Of a DNA stretch of 64,000 bases, positions 4,696 through 10,743 are shown one piece after another; positions within the stretch are counted from its first letter, which is position 1, and each line of letters opens with the position of its first letter. The notes under the pieces are model-generated. The model saw only the letters and a program-made list of their open reading frames with translations, did no database searches and was not told the origin of the DNA. Position numbers and translations under genes: made by a program. Source of the DNA: an uncultured Anaerolineaceae bacterium (GTDB lineage: Bacteria > Chloroflexota > Anaerolineae > Anaerolineales > Anaerolineaceae); the NCBI GenBank assembly GCA_964409045.1, contig CAYPBU010000002.1:3160-67159 (forward strand), read 5' to 3'.

Positions 4696-6177
4696 ATGAT
4701 GAAGAAAATTGAAGGGAATGAGGTCTGGTTTGTTGTGGGTTCGCAGCTCTTATACGGCCCCAAGGTTCTTGAGACTGTGGCAACGCGCGGCCAGGAAATG
4801 GCATCATTTATTGATTCAAAAGAAGACATTCCCTGTAAATTTGTCTATAAAGGCACAATCAAGTCGAACGAAGAAGTCACCGCGATCGTCAAACAAGCAA
4901 ATTACGATGATAACTGCGTCGGAATCGTTGCCTGGTGCCACACCTTCTCTCCGTCAAAGATGTGGATCAACGGGTTGAACCTGTTACAAAAACCCTATTG
5001 CCATTTTGCTACCCAATACAACCTCCAAATTCCTAATGAAGAAATCGATATGGATTTCATGAACCTCAATCAGGCTGCCCATGGTGACCGCGAGCACGGC
5101 TTCATCGGGGCGCGAATGCGTCTGCACAGGAAGGTCATCGTCGGGTACTGGAAGGATGAAAACGTCCTGAAAGAGTTGGGGGGATGGATGCGGGCCGCGA
5201 TTGGGTACAAAGTTAGCCAGAACCTTTCCGTTGTCCGCTTCGGGGACAATATGCGCGAGGTGGCAGTCACCGAAGGCGATAAGGTCGAAGCGCAAATCAA
5301 ATTAGGCTGGCAGGTCAACACATGGCCGGTTGGCGAGCTTGTTGCTGAGATCAGCAAAGTGACTGATGATGAAGTGCAGGCGAAAGTCAATGAATATATG
5401 GCAGAATTCCAACTCGACACGGATGATCTTCACGCCGTGACTTATCAGGCCAAGCAAGAAATAGCCATGGAGCGCATCCTGCAAAGGCAGCACGCGGATG
5501 CATACACCAACACCTTCGAAGATTTATGGGGATTGGAAGAGCTTCCAGGTATTGCGTCGCAGCACTTAATGTCCCGGGGTTATGGCTACGGAGCGGAGGG
5601 CGACTGGAAGACCTCCGCCATGGTCCACATCATAAAAGCAATGGCGCAGGGGCTCAAAGGCGGCAGCTCCTTCATGGAGGATTACACCTATCATTTTGAA
5701 GAGGACGACGGTTACTCGCTTGGTGCCCATATGCTCGAAATTTGCCCATCCATTGCAGCGTCGAAACCGCGCATTGAAGTTCATCCGCTTGGAATTGGCG
5801 GTAAAGAATCCCCAGCCCGCCTTGTGTTCGAGGGGCACGAGGGCAAAGCGGTTGTCATTTCTCTGATTGATATGGGAGGAAGGCTGCGGCTCATCGTGCA
5901 GGATATCGAGTGCGTCAAGCCGATCATGGAGATGCCCAACCTGCCCGTTGCCCGGGTGATGTGGAAAATCAAGCCGAACCTGCGGGAAGGGATCAAACAG
6001 TGGATCACAGCCGGCGGTGCCCACCATACCGTGTTGACCTATGATGTGACCCCGGAGATGCTTGAAGCCTGGGCTGAAATTATGGATATCGAGTTTGTTC
6101 ACCTCACTGAAAATACAACCAGCGAGGAATTAATCAAGGAACTCCGTGTCAACGACTTGCTCTGGAAATTGAAATAA
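4696..6177 (+). CDS. araA: L-arabinose isomerase
   Basis: 493 aa, with 'EVWFVVGSQLLYGPKVLETV' at the N-terminus and 'AHGDREHGFI', 'GYGYGAEGDWKT' and 'GAHMLE', all characteristic of AraA. Confidence 0.9.
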   Translation: MMKKIEGNEVWFVVGSQLLYGPKVLETVATRGQEMASFIDSKEDIPCKFVYKGTIKSNEEVTAIVKQANYDDNCVGIVAWCHTFSPSKMWINGLNLLQKPYCHFATQYNLQIPNEEIDMDFMNLNQAAHGDREHGFIGARMRLHRKVIVGYWKDENVLKELGGWMRAAIGYKVSQNLSVVRFGDNMREVAVTEGDKVEAQIKLGWQVNTWPVGELVAEISKVTDDEVQAKVNEYMAEFQLDTDDLHAVTYQAKQEIAMERILQRQHADAYTNTFEDLWGLEELPGIASQHLMSRGYGYGAEGDWKTSAMVHIIKAMAQGLKGGSSFMEDYTYHFEEDDGYSLGAHMLEICPSIAASKPRIEVHPLGIGGKESPARLVFEGHEGKAVVISLIDMGGRLRLIVQDIECVKPIMEMPNLPVARVMWKIKPNLREGIKQWITAGGAHHTVLTYDVTPEMLEAWAEIMDIEFVHLTENTTSEELIKELRVNDLLWKLK

Positions 6178-6271
6178 AGTGCTCGAGAAAACAAGAAAGC
6201 AAGTGCTGAGAGTTAACTTACTTTAGCAAAAATCGAACTGCTAAAGTTCGCCTAGATAAACATCTCCGATA

Positions 6272-6302
6272 TTGATAGTGTATATTACTATACTGTTATA
6301 AT
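6272..6302 (+). promoter_or_regulatory. Putative sigma70-type promoter for the island operon
   Basis: TTGATA (6272-6277) is followed by an extended -10 TGtTATAAT (6294-6302). The 19-nt spacer is longer than optimal. It sits about 55 nt upstream of the 6358 start, which has the RBS AGGAAAGGGG. Confidence 0.3.
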
Positions 6303-6357
6303 TGGATAAACAATATCGATATTTTGTCAATAGACTCTTTAGGAAAGGGGTCCTTGC

Positions 6358-8187
6358 ATGCCAAATCAGCCAACTCTTCAAGGGTTTCGGATAGATGGAA
6401 CATGGAACTTTGATAGAACATTGATTTGGGTAGGTGCTGGGATTTCTTATCCAACGCCAACTTGTTTGCCTTTAGGATCAGACCTTACCGCTTTTACACT
6501 AGAAGAAACTTGTGGGGCGTTAATTTCAAAAAAGATCCTTCGAGTTTGGGATAAAGTGACTAAAACTGCCCTTATTCGACAAGGAGTTGAACTTGGCCAG
6601 ATCCCGAGGTTAGAGGCAATTTTAGATGTTATCAGAAAATCTGAGATAAGTTTTTTACCTTCGACATATTCGTTTTTCTCAGGATTTCATGCTTTTGCTT
6701 TAGCGCCACCAAACTTCATTCATTACCATCTGGCAACCTTAATCAATGAAGGTGCAACTGTCATTACACCCAACTTTGATCTTTGTATAGAAAAAGCATG
6801 GGAATACTTGTTTGAATCCGCAACAATTACATCTACGACGGAATTTGGCTTAATTAGGAATTATCTGGGCAATAAATCCATGAACGGCCAAGTTTGGCAC
6901 TACCACGGTATTGGCACTGATCCTGATACGTTAGGTGCAACTGTCATGTCCATTAAAGCGGGATTCTCACAAGACCTAAAGAATCACTTGATTGAAAAAA
7001 TAAATAGATGTGAGACAGTCATTTTTATTGGTTACAGTTTTTCTGACGGTTTTGATGTCAATCCGTTTTTCCTCTCCTTGCCTGATAGTTTTTTTGATCA
7101 CACTAAGGCGATTTTTATAAAGCATGTCAATGGAGAGCAGTTATCAAAACTTTCTACTCCTATCAACGCTTTCGAATCTCAGTGGCATGATTTAAAAAGG
7201 ATTAAAAGAGTGTTGGCATGCTTCACAATTGTTGAATTTTACCAAGGTGATACTCGCAACTTTTTTGATGAAGCAAAAGTGGAAGAAGTCACTACTTTTG
7301 ATTGGAAAAATACCTTTAAATTGCAATCAAAATTATCGGATTTGAAAATAGTAAAACCATTGATGATTTGCTCATTGACAAATTACCTTGGTTTTAATGT
7401 AAACCTCATTCAGCCAAACATCACTAGAAGGGTAAGAGAAAATAGCCAACATTATGATAAAGTTTTCTTCATAGATCAATTGACACAAGCATTACGACGA
7501 CAAGGTCTTTCCGTTTTTGAGAAGAAGTATCATCTTGAAAAGGCCGGTGAACTTGGAAAGACTGACTTGTTAGGTTATTACTACTCACGTAGTAATTACT
7601 CAAAGGCCCAAGAGTATGCAGTTCCGCTAGAACTAGTGGAAGCCTCCATAAACAATTCCGAGCAGGAACTAAGTTGGGTTCAATTCACATCTCTAGCTTC
7701 ATATTGCCGTCCAATAGTAATGCACTACGTACAGTATTTTTTTGAGAGACATGTGAGCATAAAACATAAATCTATGATACGAGACTTACAAGTCATTCTT
7801 GGCAAAATTAACTCAAAATCTTTACAAAGTATCCTTAATGTAAACCAGTTAGGCACTTCATTACGCTTCCAATTTCTCTTTCACACCCTTGATAATAATG
7901 GAGATATTAGCAATGCTTTATTGAGGAGGGCAATTGACATTTATTCTGAGAATACCAGCATTCCAGGCTATATCAGCGTATTTCGTGACATAGCTATTAA
8001 CTACTTTCTGGCTGCAAAACTATTTGGACGGAAGGATTGTTTTTCCGACTCTTTTAAATATGCAAAGACATCCTTACTCATCGCACATGATGTTTTGGAT
8101 ATTCCAGGATTCCTCAGAGCTTTATCAGTGTTAATTTATATCGGGGTCGAGAAATTCCTTTCATTTGTATTAAGGAATAACGAATGA
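6358..8187 (+). CDS. SIR2-like (SIR2_2-type, predicted NAD+-consuming) protein with an uncharacterised helical C-terminal half
   Basis: The ordered motifs are 'VGAGIS' (res 25-30), 'VITPNFDLCIE' (N139/D141), 'VWHYHG' (H183) and 'VIFIGYSFSD' (res 221-230). This is the same arrangement as the defence-type SIR2 domains of ThsA and DSR2. Residues from about 290 to 609 are helix-rich with no motif I recognise. Codon usage is AT-rich. Confidence 0.7.
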   Translation: MPNQPTLQGFRIDGTWNFDRTLIWVGAGISYPTPTCLPLGSDLTAFTLEETCGALISKKILRVWDKVTKTALIRQGVELGQIPRLEAILDVIRKSEISFLPSTYSFFSGFHAFALAPPNFIHYHLATLINEGATVITPNFDLCIEKAWEYLFESATITSTTEFGLIRNYLGNKSMNGQVWHYHGIGTDPDTLGATVMSIKAGFSQDLKNHLIEKINRCETVIFIGYSFSDGFDVNPFFLSLPDSFFDHTKAIFIKHVNGEQLSKLSTPINAFESQWHDLKRIKRVLACFTIVEFYQGDTRNFFDEAKVEEVTTFDWKNTFKLQSKLSDLKIVKPLMICSLTNYLGFNVNLIQPNITRRVRENSQHYDKVFFIDQLTQALRRQGLSVFEKKYHLEKAGELGKTDLLGYYYSRSNYSKAQEYAVPLELVEASINNSEQELSWVQFTSLASYCRPIVMHYVQYFFERHVSIKHKSMIRDLQVILGKINSKSLQSILNVNQLGTSLRFQFLFHTLDNNGDISNALLRRAIDIYSENTSIPGYISVFRDIAINYFLAAKLFGRKDCFSDSFKYAKTSLLIAHDVLDIPGFLRALSVLIYIGVEKFLSFVLRNNE

Positions 8188-8708
8188 TCTTATTCCATGG
8201 CACTACAGCTGAAAGAGCCAAACGCATTTTCAAGGAAGGTTGCGTTAACAAGGATAGCGGCAAATTTTATACCCGACAAGAAAATGGGGATGGATACACA
8301 ACGGACGGCTTTATCTATCTATCAACTGAGTTGACTTTAGCAATATATTTCGCTAATTGTCACACCTTGGTGGATAAATCCACCTCGATTTTTATTTTCA
8401 AGTTTGACATCCCACTTAACTTAATCGAGCCTGACTTTGATGAACTGCGTCATCAAGGCGCGACCCGAATCTTAACTGATTATTACGGTGGGGAATTGGA
8501 ATGCAGTCTGCAAGAACATAAATGTTGCCGTGTCGCATTGAATATATGCTTTGGCTCATTTCAAAGTAGTTACATTGAGATTGAACTGCCTAAATCGCGA
8601 ATAAATGAAATTGTTGGATCCGTTGGACTAAATCTTAGTGATACATTGCGGTCCTATTCTGATTATCAAAAAGAATGGATGCAAAAAATTTCCTGGAATC
8701 AGTTATAA
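8184..8708 (+). CDS. Small protein with a minimal ADP-ribosyltransferase-like (Arr/DUF3990-like, H-Y-[E/D]) motif pattern
   Basis: The start overlaps the upstream stop (ATGA at 8184-8187). The motifs are 'MILFHGT' (H5), 'GFIYLSTELTLAIYFA' (Y45, Y55) and 'IFIFKFDIPLNLIEPDFDE' (E82/D84/D86). Their order and spacing mirror Arr ('FYHGT', 'IYFSALMEPAVWGA', 'IYIVEPTGPFEDDPN'). The fold call is inference only. Confidence 0.45.
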   Translation: MILFHGTTAERAKRIFKEGCVNKDSGKFYTRQENGDGYTTDGFIYLSTELTLAIYFANCHTLVDKSTSIFIFKFDIPLNLIEPDFDELRHQGATRILTDYYGGELECSLQEHKCCRVALNICFGSFQSSYIEIELPKSRINEIVGSVGLNLSDTLRSYSDYQKEWMQKISWNQL

Positions 8709-8821
8709 GTGATTTTTGGATATTAAGCAAAAACCTAATTGAAACATACCATTTTATAAGTAGTAATAAATCTTATAATGTTGAGTAAGAAAACGGTCTA
8801 CATATTGAGATAAGGAGAAAT

Positions 8822-9406
8822 TTGAAAATATTTATTATGGGATTAACAGCTTGTGGGAAGACAAGGCAAGCGAAAAACATAGCAGAACATTTTGGCTTGA
8901 CTTATATAGGTGGATCCCAGGTCTTATTGTCTAAATTAGGTTTTGAAGATAACTCAATAGATCATTTTTGGTTAGATACTATTGGTAATCAAATGAACAC
9001 TATTAGAGACGATTCGGATAATGACATACTCGTTGATAATTATCTTCTAAATAAAGCCACTAGAGAAGAAGATCTCGTTTTTGATTCATGGACAATTCCT
9101 TGGCTATATTCTGGGGCAGACGTAATAAGAGTCTATCTTCAACCAACCTTAGAATTCCGTGCAAAATTAGCATATGTCTCGAAAACTAATAAGTGTTTTA
9201 GTGTTGATGAACTAATGAGATTAATTACGATAAAAGACGAGGAAAGTAGGAAAAGGTTCCTAAATCTATACGGTTTCGATATATATGATACTAGTATTTT
9301 TGACATAGTATTTGATAATACCTTGCTCGAAAAACAAGAGACATCATCCATCTTGATCAAACGAATTTCTGAATTATTGAGTACCAACAATGTACAACCT
9401 AAGTAG
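8822..9406 (+). CDS. P-loop nucleotide kinase, cytidylate-kinase-2-like family
   Basis: A TTG start follows the RBS AAGGAG (8812-8817). Walker A is 'GLTACGKT' (res 7-14). 'VYLQPTLEFRAKLA' and 'EESRKRFLNLYGFDIYDTSIFDIVFDNT' resemble archaeal-type CMP kinases. Confidence 0.6.
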   Translation: MKIFIMGLTACGKTRQAKNIAEHFGLTYIGGSQVLLSKLGFEDNSIDHFWLDTIGNQMNTIRDDSDNDILVDNYLLNKATREEDLVFDSWTIPWLYSGADVIRVYLQPTLEFRAKLAYVSKTNKCFSVDELMRLITIKDEESRKRFLNLYGFDIYDTSIFDIVFDNTLLEKQETSSILIKRISELLSTNNVQPK

Positions 9407-10255
9407 AGCTAGCAGATCAAAGTCATATCATAAGCCATCATAATTTCCCCTTCAGATCAAGATTGCTTTGATTCAATAGTTTGACTACGTTTGTTTAAAT
9501 TCCTCTGTTAATTACTTTGGCCTGATGAATTCAAAAAACGGACAACTGGAAGTTCAGGAGTTTGGTTTTTTTGGTTTCTCCCTTGCAACCTAAAGGTCGT
9601 CGTTGCATAGGCTCCCAGCTACTGATCTTTGAATTCCAGGTCGTCTTAGTTAAGTCGTTTACCCTGTTTCGCGAGGCATGGCAAATACCTCGGCGGGAGT
9701 AACTCCACTCTCTACTAATAATGTACCTTTCCAAAAAGTTTCAAACATTTTCAACCCATCTCCAATGAATCAGAAGAGCCTGGGAAGGGCTAATGCAAGC
9801 TACTCCCAGTTTCCAAAGGTTGAATTGGCTGAAGGGACTGATCATGTTGGCGGAGTGAGCATAGTAGAAATCTTCGCTCTTTGTGATGGCAATCCTCTTA
9901 TCCAGCTAGTCCAAATCCCTACCGTCAAGATCCTGAGTTTTGAGTGAACTGCGAGCACTGGCAAATACCCGCAAGGGGTACTGCGTCGGCTATCTGCCAC
10001 TATAAGGTGAATATTCTATCTACACATCGCGACGGATTTGCTAGCTGCGTTTTGCCATGATTACAAACCATTACTTTTGATAGTAGTAATAGACCTGTCA
10101 AATTAGTCAAATTGGCTATTGGAATTGTTTATGGGTTGACGATCAGAAGACTAACCGATATATTTCTCCTTTGCAGCAGGTTATCGACAAGGATACTTAC
10201 ATAACCGAGAATGAATGTGAATCAACGAATAAGTCATCAGCACCTAATTCTTCGG

Positions 10256-10278
10256 TATAATAGTTGCATAAGGCAACC
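10256..10278 (+). promoter_or_regulatory. -10 box plus candidate MarR operator
   Basis: TATAAT (10256-10261) is immediately followed by AGTTGCAtaagGCAAC (GTTGC-N5-GCAAC, 10262-10278). A near-identical site lies at 16405-16421. Confidence 0.4.
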
Positions 10279-10293
10279 GATTGGCAAAATTTT

Positions 10294-10743
10294 ATGAAGC
10301 AAAATCAACACGCACAAATCGATCACCTTCTTTTCCAGGTGTTACGTACCATCTTTCACTACGAGCGTAGTATTGCCATGGATTACGGGCTGGACTTTCA
10401 GCAGATCTATGCCCTCCAATTTCTGCGCCGGCATCCCAGCGCGCGCCTCACCGAGATTGCAGAAGAAATGGAGCTGCCCAAATTCACCGCCAGCCGCCTG
10501 CTAAACCGGTTGGTGGAAGTAGGGTATTTATCCAAAACCCAAGACCAAACCGACCGCAGGAATTATCACCTTCACCTTGAAGACAAGGGAGAAGGTATCC
10601 TTCAGGATATTGAAACCGCGAGTTATACCCGAATCTCAACCAACATCGAGGGTTTTTCTCCTGAAGAAATTAGTGAGCTCTATGAGGTTGCCGAGCATTT
10701 GCCCAAAGTCTTGGGTGTGACCGAAAAAGTTAAGGGTCACTGA
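10294..10743 (+). CDS. MarR-family transcriptional regulator
   Basis: The winged-helix region 'LTEIAEEMELPKFTASRLLNRLVEVGYLSKTQDQTDRRNYHLHLEDKG' is typical of MarR. I prefer the ATG at 10294 to the TTG at 10264, which lies inside the operator. Confidence 0.85.
   Translation: MKQNQHAQIDHLLFQVLRTIFHYERSIAMDYGLDFQQIYALQFLRRHPSARLTEIAEEMELPKFTASRLLNRLVEVGYLSKTQDQTDRRNYHLHLEDKGEGILQDIETASYTRISTNIEGFSPEEISELYEVAEHLPKVLGVTEKVKGH

Follow-up and report, generated by a model that had tools for sequence, protein, structure and literature searches.

In the 64,000-nucleotide (nt) stretch of DNA analysed here, which comes from an uncultured Anaerolineaceae bacterium and is called the window throughout, a small gene at positions 8184-8708 of the + strand encodes a stand-alone protein of 174 codons with the predicted fold of a minimal ADP-ribosyltransferase (ART). 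This gene, ORF2 (ORF, open reading frame), is the middle one of three genes that lie on the + strand of an island of low guanine-cytosine (GC) content at 6200-9500; the island is apparent from the composition profile, from the ORF list and from the Pfam labels of the same genes in locus L001. GC is 33-41% across about 6.2-9.5 kb versus about 47-55% in the flanks. Upstream, ORF1 (6358-8187, + strand) encodes 609 amino acids (aa), with a defence-type SIR2 NADase domain at the N-terminus followed by TPR/14-3-3-like helical repeats (about residues 316-608). Downstream, ORF3 (8822-9406, + strand) encodes a P-loop cytidylate-kinase-like protein of 194 aa (GLTACGKT), recognised from its Pfam and TIGR matches. 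The island is flanked by araA (4696-6177) of an arabinose-utilisation cluster and by a MarR-type regulator gene (10264-10743) of a MarR/aldehyde-ferredoxin-oxidoreductase cluster. Identical proteins of this locus are found on three metagenome contigs of one lineage.

A sequence-only reading of this DNA had described a 174-aa ORF whose start is embedded in the ORF1 stop, and this is confirmed. The two genes overlap at 8184-8187 as ATGA, with the ATG of ORF2 at 8184-8186 and the TGA of ORF1 at 8185-8187. A Shine-Dalgarno-like AAGGAA, read from the sequence at 8172-8177 (+ strand), lies within the 3' end of ORF1 and 7 nt ahead of the ATG of ORF2. M1 is the earliest start codon after the preceding in-frame stop, and the alignments of the family start exactly there. 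Because ATGA overlaps are common at operon junctions, the junction shows co-transcription and co-expression, not functional partnership. On this chromosomal SIR2 island there is no integrase, relaxase or phage gene within 4 genes of ORF2, and a search of the island edges for flanking direct repeats, a tRNA, an integrase or an Rfam element turned up nothing convincing. Predicted promoters and terminators were no more numerous here than in shuffled sequence. The right edge of the island (9407-10263, about 860 nt) contains no convincing ORF, only ORFs of 89 aa (+) and 67 aa (-), and has no Rfam or tRNA match; GC climbs to the host level there.

Fold and conserved residues of ORF2

As a single sequence, ORF2 has no match in Pfam (E <= 1), NCBIfam, PADLOC or the PDB sequences. 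A word-indexed protein search with ORF2 returned only itself, and the same search with a family profile reached 12 clusters only. The family emerges from an exhaustive phmmer (HMMER) search over 1.84 billion cluster representatives, which gave 119 clusters at E < 1e-3, of which 27 have E < 1e-10. Most of the homologs are stand-alone, 170-190 aa long and aligned with ORF2 from residue 1. No paper describing this family or a SIR2-ART pair was found in a literature search.

The ART assignment is well supported by the predicted structure. The AlphaFold2 model, built on an alignment of 60 sequences, has a mean predicted local distance difference test score (pLDDT) of 96.5 and a predicted template-modelling (TM) score of 0.90. 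It has six main strands (2-8, 44-47, 69-75, 114-117, 121-123 and 128-133) with helices between them, as expected of the split ART core with its two three-stranded sheet units, and the protein has no extension ahead of the ART beta1 strand. In the PDB, almost every one of the top 50 Foldseek matches is an ART or an ART-like fold. The best is the A1 chain of cholera toxin/LT (E = 1.1e-3, probability 0.98-1.0), and others are the Rhs toxins TreX/TreTu, CC0527 (DUF952), Scabin, DarT, Arr-2, a guanine-specific ART, Tpt1 and PARP2. Against the viral structures of BFVD, eight paralogs from Bacillus phage G lead the matches (E = 2.7e-8 to 4e-4), followed by phage DarT, Tpt1 and Arr. Phage G has been reported to encode at least 10 ARTs (Iyer et al., PMC9503650).

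Conservation among 106 full-length family members, given here in ORF2 numbering, falls on the positions that an ART of the H-Y-[D/E] type would need. H5 (codon 8196-8198, + strand) is the predicted NAD+-binding histidine on strand beta1, in the motif L-[YF]-H-G-T; it is H in 101/106 (95%) and is followed by T at position 7 in 100/106. This assignment draws on conservation, the model strand 2-8, the hhalign alignments and the register of the PARP profile. Y45 is Y in 105/106 (99%) and would lie on strand beta2 (44-47 in the model) in the motif G-[YF]-[VI]-Y-L-[TS], with G at position 42 in 99/106. Eleven residues on, position 56 is Y, F or W in 100/106 (94%), and the codons Y45-F56 span 8316-8351 (+ strand). 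The two tyrosines of diphtheria toxin (Y54/Y65) and PARP1 (Y896/Y907) have this same spacing. Thus the H5 and Y45 motifs picked out by the sequence-only reading hold: they are among the best-conserved positions, and both are on predicted beta strands.

The third residue has to be moved. E82 had been proposed as the catalytic acid; position 82 is E in 50/106 members (47%) and L in 35, and the conserved acids come 2-5 residues later. D84 is invariant (106/106, 100%), D86 is found in 103/106 (97%) and E87 in 99/106 (93%). The codons D84-F85-D86-E87 (8433-8444, + strand) form a conserved acidic motif, P-D-x-D-E, which in the model follows strand beta3 (69-75) and a short bridge, and which is the candidate source of the catalytic acid. 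Other conserved positions are 72 (F in 98/106) and 171 (W in 98/106). R27 (66%) and R116 (73%) are not invariant, and the family has no invariant arginine. Conservation is uneven along the protein: the N-terminal half (1-90) averages 2.06 bits versus 1.19 bits for the fast-evolving C-terminal half (91-174), and the median identity to ORF2 is 34% versus 15.5%. This contrast suggests conflict-type evolution. The family is acidic, with a median isoelectric point (pI) of 5.25.

Membership of ORF2 in the Arr, DUF3990, PARP, Tpt1 or DarT families is not supported. Among 60 members, the sub-threshold Pfam matches are to PARP (five members), Tox-ART-HYD1 (four), ART-PolyVal, DUF3990, Arr-ms and Tpt1, so that the ART clan is enriched among the weak matches. 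Four members share one register on the PARP profile (PF00644), with family positions 1-86 aligned to profile positions 50-118, which spans the H-G-[ST] and Tyr region; the best member scores 16.6 bits (E = 0.0059), below the gathering threshold of 26.7 bits. ORF2 itself matches neither Arr (PF12120) nor DUF3990 (PF13151), and one member of the 60 falls on Arr-ms at E = 0.14 and one on DUF3990 at E = 0.085. The family consensus found no ART match in Pfam and did worse than single members, and the family profile gave chance matches only against PDB sequences (TMED9 and C3, E about 0.4). We also used hhalign with a verified Arr-3 (100% match on plasmids) and E. coli KptA as templates, a weak test in that both are single sequences. 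Arr-3 aligned over the beta1 YHGT motif only (22 columns, P = 0.013, probability 3%) and KptA over the His motif only (21 columns, probability 25%), both onto the catalytic-His strands. For Tpt1/KptA (PF01885), only this histidine aligns; the R-H-R-R tetrad is absent, and there is no N-terminal RNA-binding lobe.

The earlier claim of an Arr/DUF3990-like signature therefore survives as a minimal ART fold of the H-Y-[D/E] type and fails as a statement of family, since all matches stay below gathering and Arr-3 reaches a probability of 3%. Of the motif parallels drawn with rifampin ADP-ribosyltransferase, the one at beta1 YHGT can be recovered, and the rest are undetectable. The profile comparison proposed as a check gave no significant match, and the structural comparison with the PDB gave ART folds nearly exclusively.

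It is conceivable that ORF2 is an Arr-like small-molecule ART that inactivates an antibiotic or metabolite, which would explain the lack of an antitoxin. Its minimal, stand-alone form and acidic pI fit such an enzyme, as does the 5/45/84 spacing of its H, Y and D, close to the spacing in Arr; Arr-2 (9iba) and a phage 'Arr' are among the fold matches, and one member falls weakly on Arr-ms. However, the Arr fold match (E = 0.31, probability 0.30) is far behind those of toxin-type ARTs, and the hhalign alignment with Arr-3 is confined to 22 residues. The genes are found in restriction-modification (R-M), prophage and conjugation settings, not in integron cassettes or antibiotic clusters, and a fast C-terminal half suits a co-evolving macromolecular target better than a fixed small molecule. 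We regard an Arr-like role as most improbable.

The ART fold may also serve chemistry other than transfer, either NAD+ glycohydrolysis or phosphorolysis as in RES/MbcT/Tne-like proteins, or removal of RNA 2'-phosphates as in Tpt1. Constitutive NADase activity would poison a host that lacks an immunity gene, and the family has no conserved one. Of the Tpt1 R-H-R-R tetrad only the histidine is kept, and the N-terminal RNA-binding domain of Tpt1 is missing. In favour of such chemistry, ART-fold NADases do exist, Tne5 being one (PMC13285283), KptA scores best in hhalign (25%), and Tpt1 is among the matches of both fold searches. In addition, a distant relative in locus L057 is fused to a 2H phosphoesterase, the enzyme class that processes the Tpt1 product. 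On balance, this explanation is highly improbable.

ORF2 beside SIR2, in restriction-modification operons and on mobile elements

From 46 fetched loci with ORF2 homologs, we took 42 together with the window (43 in total) for gene calling and neighbour clustering, annotated representatives, and removed redundancy before counting. The first question is whether ORF2 belongs to the SIR2 protein beside which it lies. The sequence-only reading had taken the two as a 1:1 pair, and had considered ORF2 a second effector, a toxin or a modifier paired with ORF1. The pairing holds in this lineage, on its three contigs with identical proteins, and at no other locus examined. ORF2 is absent beside all 28 ORF1 homologs examined in context, and a SIR2 neighbour is found at 0/26 independent (de-duplicated) loci of ORF2 homologs. 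In L004-L006, which have the closest ORF1 homologs (54% identity), the gene is followed after a 216-nt spacer by a kinase gene whose product is 72% identical to ORF3, and ORF2 is absent. More distant ORF1 homologs stand alone, and one adjoins an R-M system. A tblastn search found no remnant of ORF2 in L004-L010.

The DNA of the junction agrees with an insertion of ORF2. In a blastn comparison of the window with L004, homology is found at 7916-8129 and 8820-8976 only. The block between them (8130-8819, + strand) is presumably an inserted cassette, and takes in the final ~19 codons of ORF1, the whole of ORF2 and the spacer that separates it from ORF3. The 3' end of ORF1 (8130-8187) has no counterpart in the 54%-identical homolog, the protein tails being ...IYIGVEKFLSFVLRNNE versus ...TLISIEALLSTLF. 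Such a break in DNA homology from about 8129 to about 8820 looks like the mark of an inserted cassette that altered the 3' end of ORF1. It seems, from the sequence comparison, that the ORF2 cassette replaced this end and thereby made the ATGA junction. Because the ORF1 loci examined lack ORF2 and the ORF2 loci lack SIR2, a dedicated two-gene SIR2-ART system is not supported, and ORF2 is probably not a dedicated SIR2 partner. The proposal of a second effector, toxin or modifier paired with ORF1 is likewise not supported: the nearest relatives of ORF1 do without ORF2, and the relatives of ORF2 do without SIR2 and are mostly in type I R-M operons.

The layout of ORF1 supports the same view. Its SIR2_2 match in Pfam has E = 4e-7, and the motifs G26-A-G-x-S30, T137-x-N139-x-D141 and H183-G184 are invariant across the 28 homologs. 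The AlphaFold2 model (pLDDT 88.6) has its best Foldseek matches in Thoeris ThsA, DSR2, AVAST5 and KomC, and the C-terminal half matches helical repeats of the TPR, 14-3-3 and MalT type. As modelled, ORF1 is laid out as an effector plus sensor, as in single-protein defence systems such as DSR2 and ThsA. An integrated SIR2-ART(-kinase) system, in which ORF1 would trigger ORF2 as a second effector, hold it in check as a toxin or be regulated through ADP-ribosylation by it, draws on the ATGA coupling with its internal Shine-Dalgarno sequence, on the placing of three genes on one strand in one low-GC island, and on the prediction that both ORF1 and ORF2 use NAD+. There is also the precedent of embedded TgvAB, which protects better within its R-M cluster (PMC11411939). 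These points are set against the lack of co-occurrence outside this lineage (28 ORF1 homologs, 26 loci of ORF2 homologs), against an ORF1 that already combines effector and sensor like the stand-alone DSR2/ThsA-type proteins, and against the fact that a SIR2 NADase would use up the substrate of the ART itself. We consider an integrated system unlikely.

The conserved unit is the SIR2-TPR protein with the kinase-like protein, and ORF2 is an add-on to it. ORF3 matches Pfam Cytidylate_kin2 at E = 6e-10 (above the cut-off) and TIGR02173 at E = 1.7e-16 (below the cut-off). PADLOC has no system model for a SIR2-TPR protein with a kinase, and in it ORF3 weakly matches pVip-kinase and VakA only. The pair of SIR2-TPR and cytidylate-kinase-like genes (6358-8187 and 8822-9406 in the window; 383-3010 in L004; also L005 and L006) may be an undescribed defence system. 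A pattern scan of GTDB genomes for ORF1 gave no match. In L009, a gene with a metallo-beta-lactamase fold that matches the Anti-Pycsar protein Apyc1 in precomputed Pfam results (9787-10536, opposite strand) is situated about 3 kb downstream of a stand-alone ORF1 homolog.

The closest relatives of ORF2 have a different home. Type I R-M operons hold the homolog at 12 of the 19 independent loci with at least 34% identity to ORF2, and at 10 of the 13 with at least 40%. The embedded homologs are on the same strand as the operon, mostly with gaps of 20-45 nt, typically in the slot from hsdS to hsdR, and they adjoin genes for DUF4238, DUF3800, a HEPN domain, DUF6602 or DUF2971. One order is hsdM-hsdS-ART-hsdR (L017). 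Others are ART-DUF4238-hsdR (L018, L019, L020 and L028), hsdS-ART-DUF2971-hsdR (L035), ART-DUF3800-HEPN-hsdR (L030 and L031), ART-DUF3800-DUF6602-hsdR (L039 and L043) and hsdS-ART-integrase (L023, L024, L032 and L033, with hsdR at the upstream end in L033). The genes downstream of the homologs thus vary (DUF4238, DUF3800, DUF2971, HsdR, integrase or kinase), and neighbour clustering over the 43 loci showed no conserved partner or antitoxin, be it a macrodomain, NADAR or other protein. The family is embedded in defence at both kinds of site: its members lie within type I R-M operons, and ORF2 lies between a SIR2-TPR gene and its conserved kinase partner.

These neighbours and this slot are known from defence. 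DUF4238 is a validated single-gene defence against T7 (PMC9122126). The slot between hsdS and hsdR holds an embedded DarTG2, an ART toxin-antitoxin system, in enteropathogenic Escherichia coli (PMC12255303), and an embedded TgvAB in V. cholerae (PMC11411939). Payne et al. formalised 'guilt by embedding' and state that over half of the embedded genes of type I R-M systems are still unexplained; their preprint mentions neither ARTs nor SIR2 (10.1101/2024.01.29.577857).

The remaining close loci and the more distant members are found in conjugative, recombinase, prophage, YobI and phage-like settings. Conjugative transfer regions carry the homolog in L016, L034, L040, L048, L049 and L056; in L016, L048, L049 and L056 these are distant members between relaxase and coupling protein, and in L034 the homolog adjoins an SNF2-methylase giant protein, a Toprim primase and YodL. 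In L011-15 it comes immediately after a tyrosine recombinase, as does a copy on an E. faecalis plasmid near a type III R-M system. The prophage loci L050-54 have it beside antiterminator Q, a classic prophage 'moron' site. Further homologs are in a phage-like Bacillus element and in viral contigs, and in L045 the homolog adjoins a YobI-type NTPase. In the searches of phage and plasmid sequences, phrog_13493 (function unknown) matches 35/60 family members, and ORF2 itself has no PHROG at E <= 0.01 and no tblastn match in 50,697 phage records. Plasmids returned only distant matches to the N-terminal half of ORF2, annotated as hypothetical. PADLOC v2 has no model for the family, and one member marginally matches PDC-S15 (E = 2e-4).

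These mobile settings raise another explanation, namely that the family serves mobile elements in anti-defence or establishment, as AcrIF11-like stand-alone ARTs that ADP-ribosylate a host defence protein or another host protein, with the copies in defence operons being domesticated or hitch-hiking. The distant members between relaxase and coupling protein, the setting of L034, the antiterminator Q prophages, the phage-like Bacillus element and the viral contigs all speak for it, together with the match of phrog_13493 to 35/60 members and the phage G ARTs as the best structural relatives. Such a factor would need no antitoxin, and AcrIF11 is a precedent as a small ART borne on mobile elements (PMC12421852). 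The closest members of ORF2, on the other hand, are co-directional inside complete type I R-M operons, beside validated or typical defence genes, and embedding within complete R-M operons argues against a gene that disables defence. The ORF2 island also has no integrase, relaxase or phage gene within 4 genes. We find this explanation of the family distinctly unlikely; the distant members could plausibly have an anti-defence role, the clade of R-M operons to which ORF2 belongs less plausibly.

Several further observations concern the neighbours of the family. The ART gene is followed by one for a DUF3800 protein of about 500 aa in L030 (6001-8064), L036 (5953-8062) and L039 (6001-8067), and also in L031, L037 and L043. 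These represent three independent settings, one of them outside R-M, following a prophage tail gene and with an 8-nt overlap between the ART and DUF3800 genes; ART-DUF3800 could be a two-gene module. In L045 (6656-7973; also in L046), the gene directly downstream of the ART, for a YobI-like P-loop NTPase, is broken into two ORFs that overlap and match profile positions 1-157 and 164-319; it is probably frameshifted or a pseudogene. In L050 (5893-7458; also L051, L052 and L054), the distant homologs are of 209 aa and lie by a gene for antitermination protein Q on the opposite strand.

A conserved protein of about 180 aa without a Pfam match is encoded between a methylase-specificity fusion gene and hsdM in L017 (2126-2677) and L043 (2651-3202). 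The second 176-aa ORF of L017 (2147-2677) was considered as an ART paralog and rejected, as it is unrelated to the ART family. In L057 (747-2579), an ORF of 611 aa begins with a divergent ART relative (26.7 bits), which is joined to a GNAT acetyltransferase domain and a 2H (LigT/Acb1-like) phosphoesterase domain in a polyvalent conflict-type architecture. This relative keeps YHGT and GYVYLT and has EEDxWE in place of PDxDE. We did not accept it as a clear family member, as it is divergent and lacks P-D-x-D-E.

Proposed role and comparison with known systems

We propose, with a probability of roughly 0.6, that ORF2 represents an unannotated clade of minimal H-Y-[D/E] ARTs, which moves as a single-gene cassette among defence operons and acts as an independent NAD+-dependent conflict effector. 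We infer its target and its defence role from the fold, the conservation and the settings described above, and the mechanism may be as follows. The N-terminal half would bind NAD+ through H5 on beta1, Y45 on beta2 and the aromatic residue at position 56. D84 with D86 and E87, or E87 itself, would be the catalytic acid that activates ADP-ribose transfer. The fast-evolving C-terminal half most likely selects the target. The cassette appears to insert co-directionally into defence operons, its closest relatives being mostly in type I R-M. At this locus, it would have entered between a self-contained SIR2-TPR NADase and its kinase-like partner, to be co-translated from the ORF1 message through the ATGA junction. 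In its most likely role, ORF2 would ADP-ribosylate a macromolecule of the invading phage or plasmid as a second immune layer. It probably does not serve the SIR2 protein as an obligate subunit, toxin or regulator. The acidic pI, together with the lack of an antitoxin, speaks mildly against indiscriminate modification of DNA or RNA.

A number of points weigh against this proposal. No sequence model of a known ART family is significant: the Pfam matches stay below gathering, the PDB profile search is null and hhalign covers about 21 residues. The structural matches in the PDB are remote, with a TM-score of about 0.4 and none at E < 1e-3, and the clustering of H5, Y45 and D84 in space is a deduction from the strand positions of a model. 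The acidic family (median pI 5.25) is unlike typical ARTs that target nucleic acids. Known ART toxins of defence systems, such as DarT and CmdT, need an antitoxin; as none is conserved here, ORF2 would have to be non-toxic to its host or otherwise regulated. An anti-defence role is equally plausible for the distant members in conjugative regions and prophages. Finally, the ATGA coupling would also fit a functional link between ORF2 and ORF1.

Tentatively, and with considerable doubt, we suggest that these antitoxin-less ARTs form a class of 'riders', not recognised before, that insert into other defence systems (type I R-M, SIR2) and are co-translated with them. As a back-up of PrrC-like logic, the fast-evolving C-terminal half would sense or bind phage proteins of counter-defence or register the state of the host complex, and the conserved H-Y-D core would then ADP-ribosylate a phage or host target. 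If this is true, the SIR2-ART junction here would be a natural case of a cassette changing its host system.

ADP-ribosylation is emerging as a main currency of the conflict between phages and bacteria, with DarT acting on DNA, CmdT on mRNA and AcrIF11 on Cas8f. The present analysis adds a widespread clade of ARTs (at least 119 clusters at 50% identity), with a distinctive P-D-x-D-E motif and no antitoxin, which is unrecognised by Pfam, NCBIfam, PADLOC and the annotated PHROGs. Its preference for the slot from hsdS to hsdR makes it an easily cloned single-gene candidate for defence screens, and the family raises the question of how an ART stays harmless without a partner.

ORF2 is not a new principle but a variant of a known ART type. 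Like Arr (PF12120; Arr-2, 9iba), it is a minimal stand-alone ART of about 140-175 aa without an antitoxin. Both have the YHGT strand at the N-terminus, aligned by hhalign with ORF2 residues 2-23, a Tyr strand about 30-40 residues on and, behind the next strand, a likely catalytic acid that is Asp and not Glu. They differ in the absence of significant sequence or profile similarity, in the weak fold match (E = 0.31), in the C-terminal half, in the conserved P-D-x-D-E and in the location of the ORF2 family in defence operons and mobile elements, not resistance cassettes. With the diphtheria-toxin/PARP group (ARTD, H-Y-E; PF00644), ORF2 shares the beta1 H followed by G-[ST] and the beta2 Tyr with a second aromatic residue 11 positions on. 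In ORF2, however, the acidic residue comes about 30 residues after this second aromatic, not about 80, and the regulatory and helical subdomains of PARP are missing.

DarT of DarTG has an ART fold of the H-Y-E class, is embedded in the same slot from hsdS to hsdR, and is among the fold matches of ORF2 (7omx and 7yk3; BFVD DarT, E = 9.7e-5). Unlike DarT, the ORF2-family loci have no adjacent macrodomain or NADAR antitoxin; ORF2 is shorter and acidic instead of basic, has no detectable sequence similarity to DarT, and gives no indication of DNA targeting. The ART paralogs of Bacillus phage G (Gp336, Gp233, Gp568, Gp53, Gp532 and others) are likewise of small ART fold, at TM-scores of 0.43-0.57; they are 12-24% identical to ORF2 and are themselves uncharacterised. 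AcrIF11 (PMC12421852) is also a small stand-alone ART of mobile elements with a protein target and no antitoxin. It is not in the top 50 fold matches, and it is an anti-defence protein, whereas the closest relatives of ORF2 are within defence operons.

PrrC/RloC and TgvAB, which are embedded in R-M, have folds unrelated to that of ORF2 (anticodon nuclease and GmrSD), and the host operon of ORF2 is here a SIR2-kinase one. Unlike the PrrC type, there is no evidence that an R-M complex keeps the ORF2-family ART latent. What they share is the organisation: one or a few small co-oriented genes within a type I R-M operon, forming an accessory layer.

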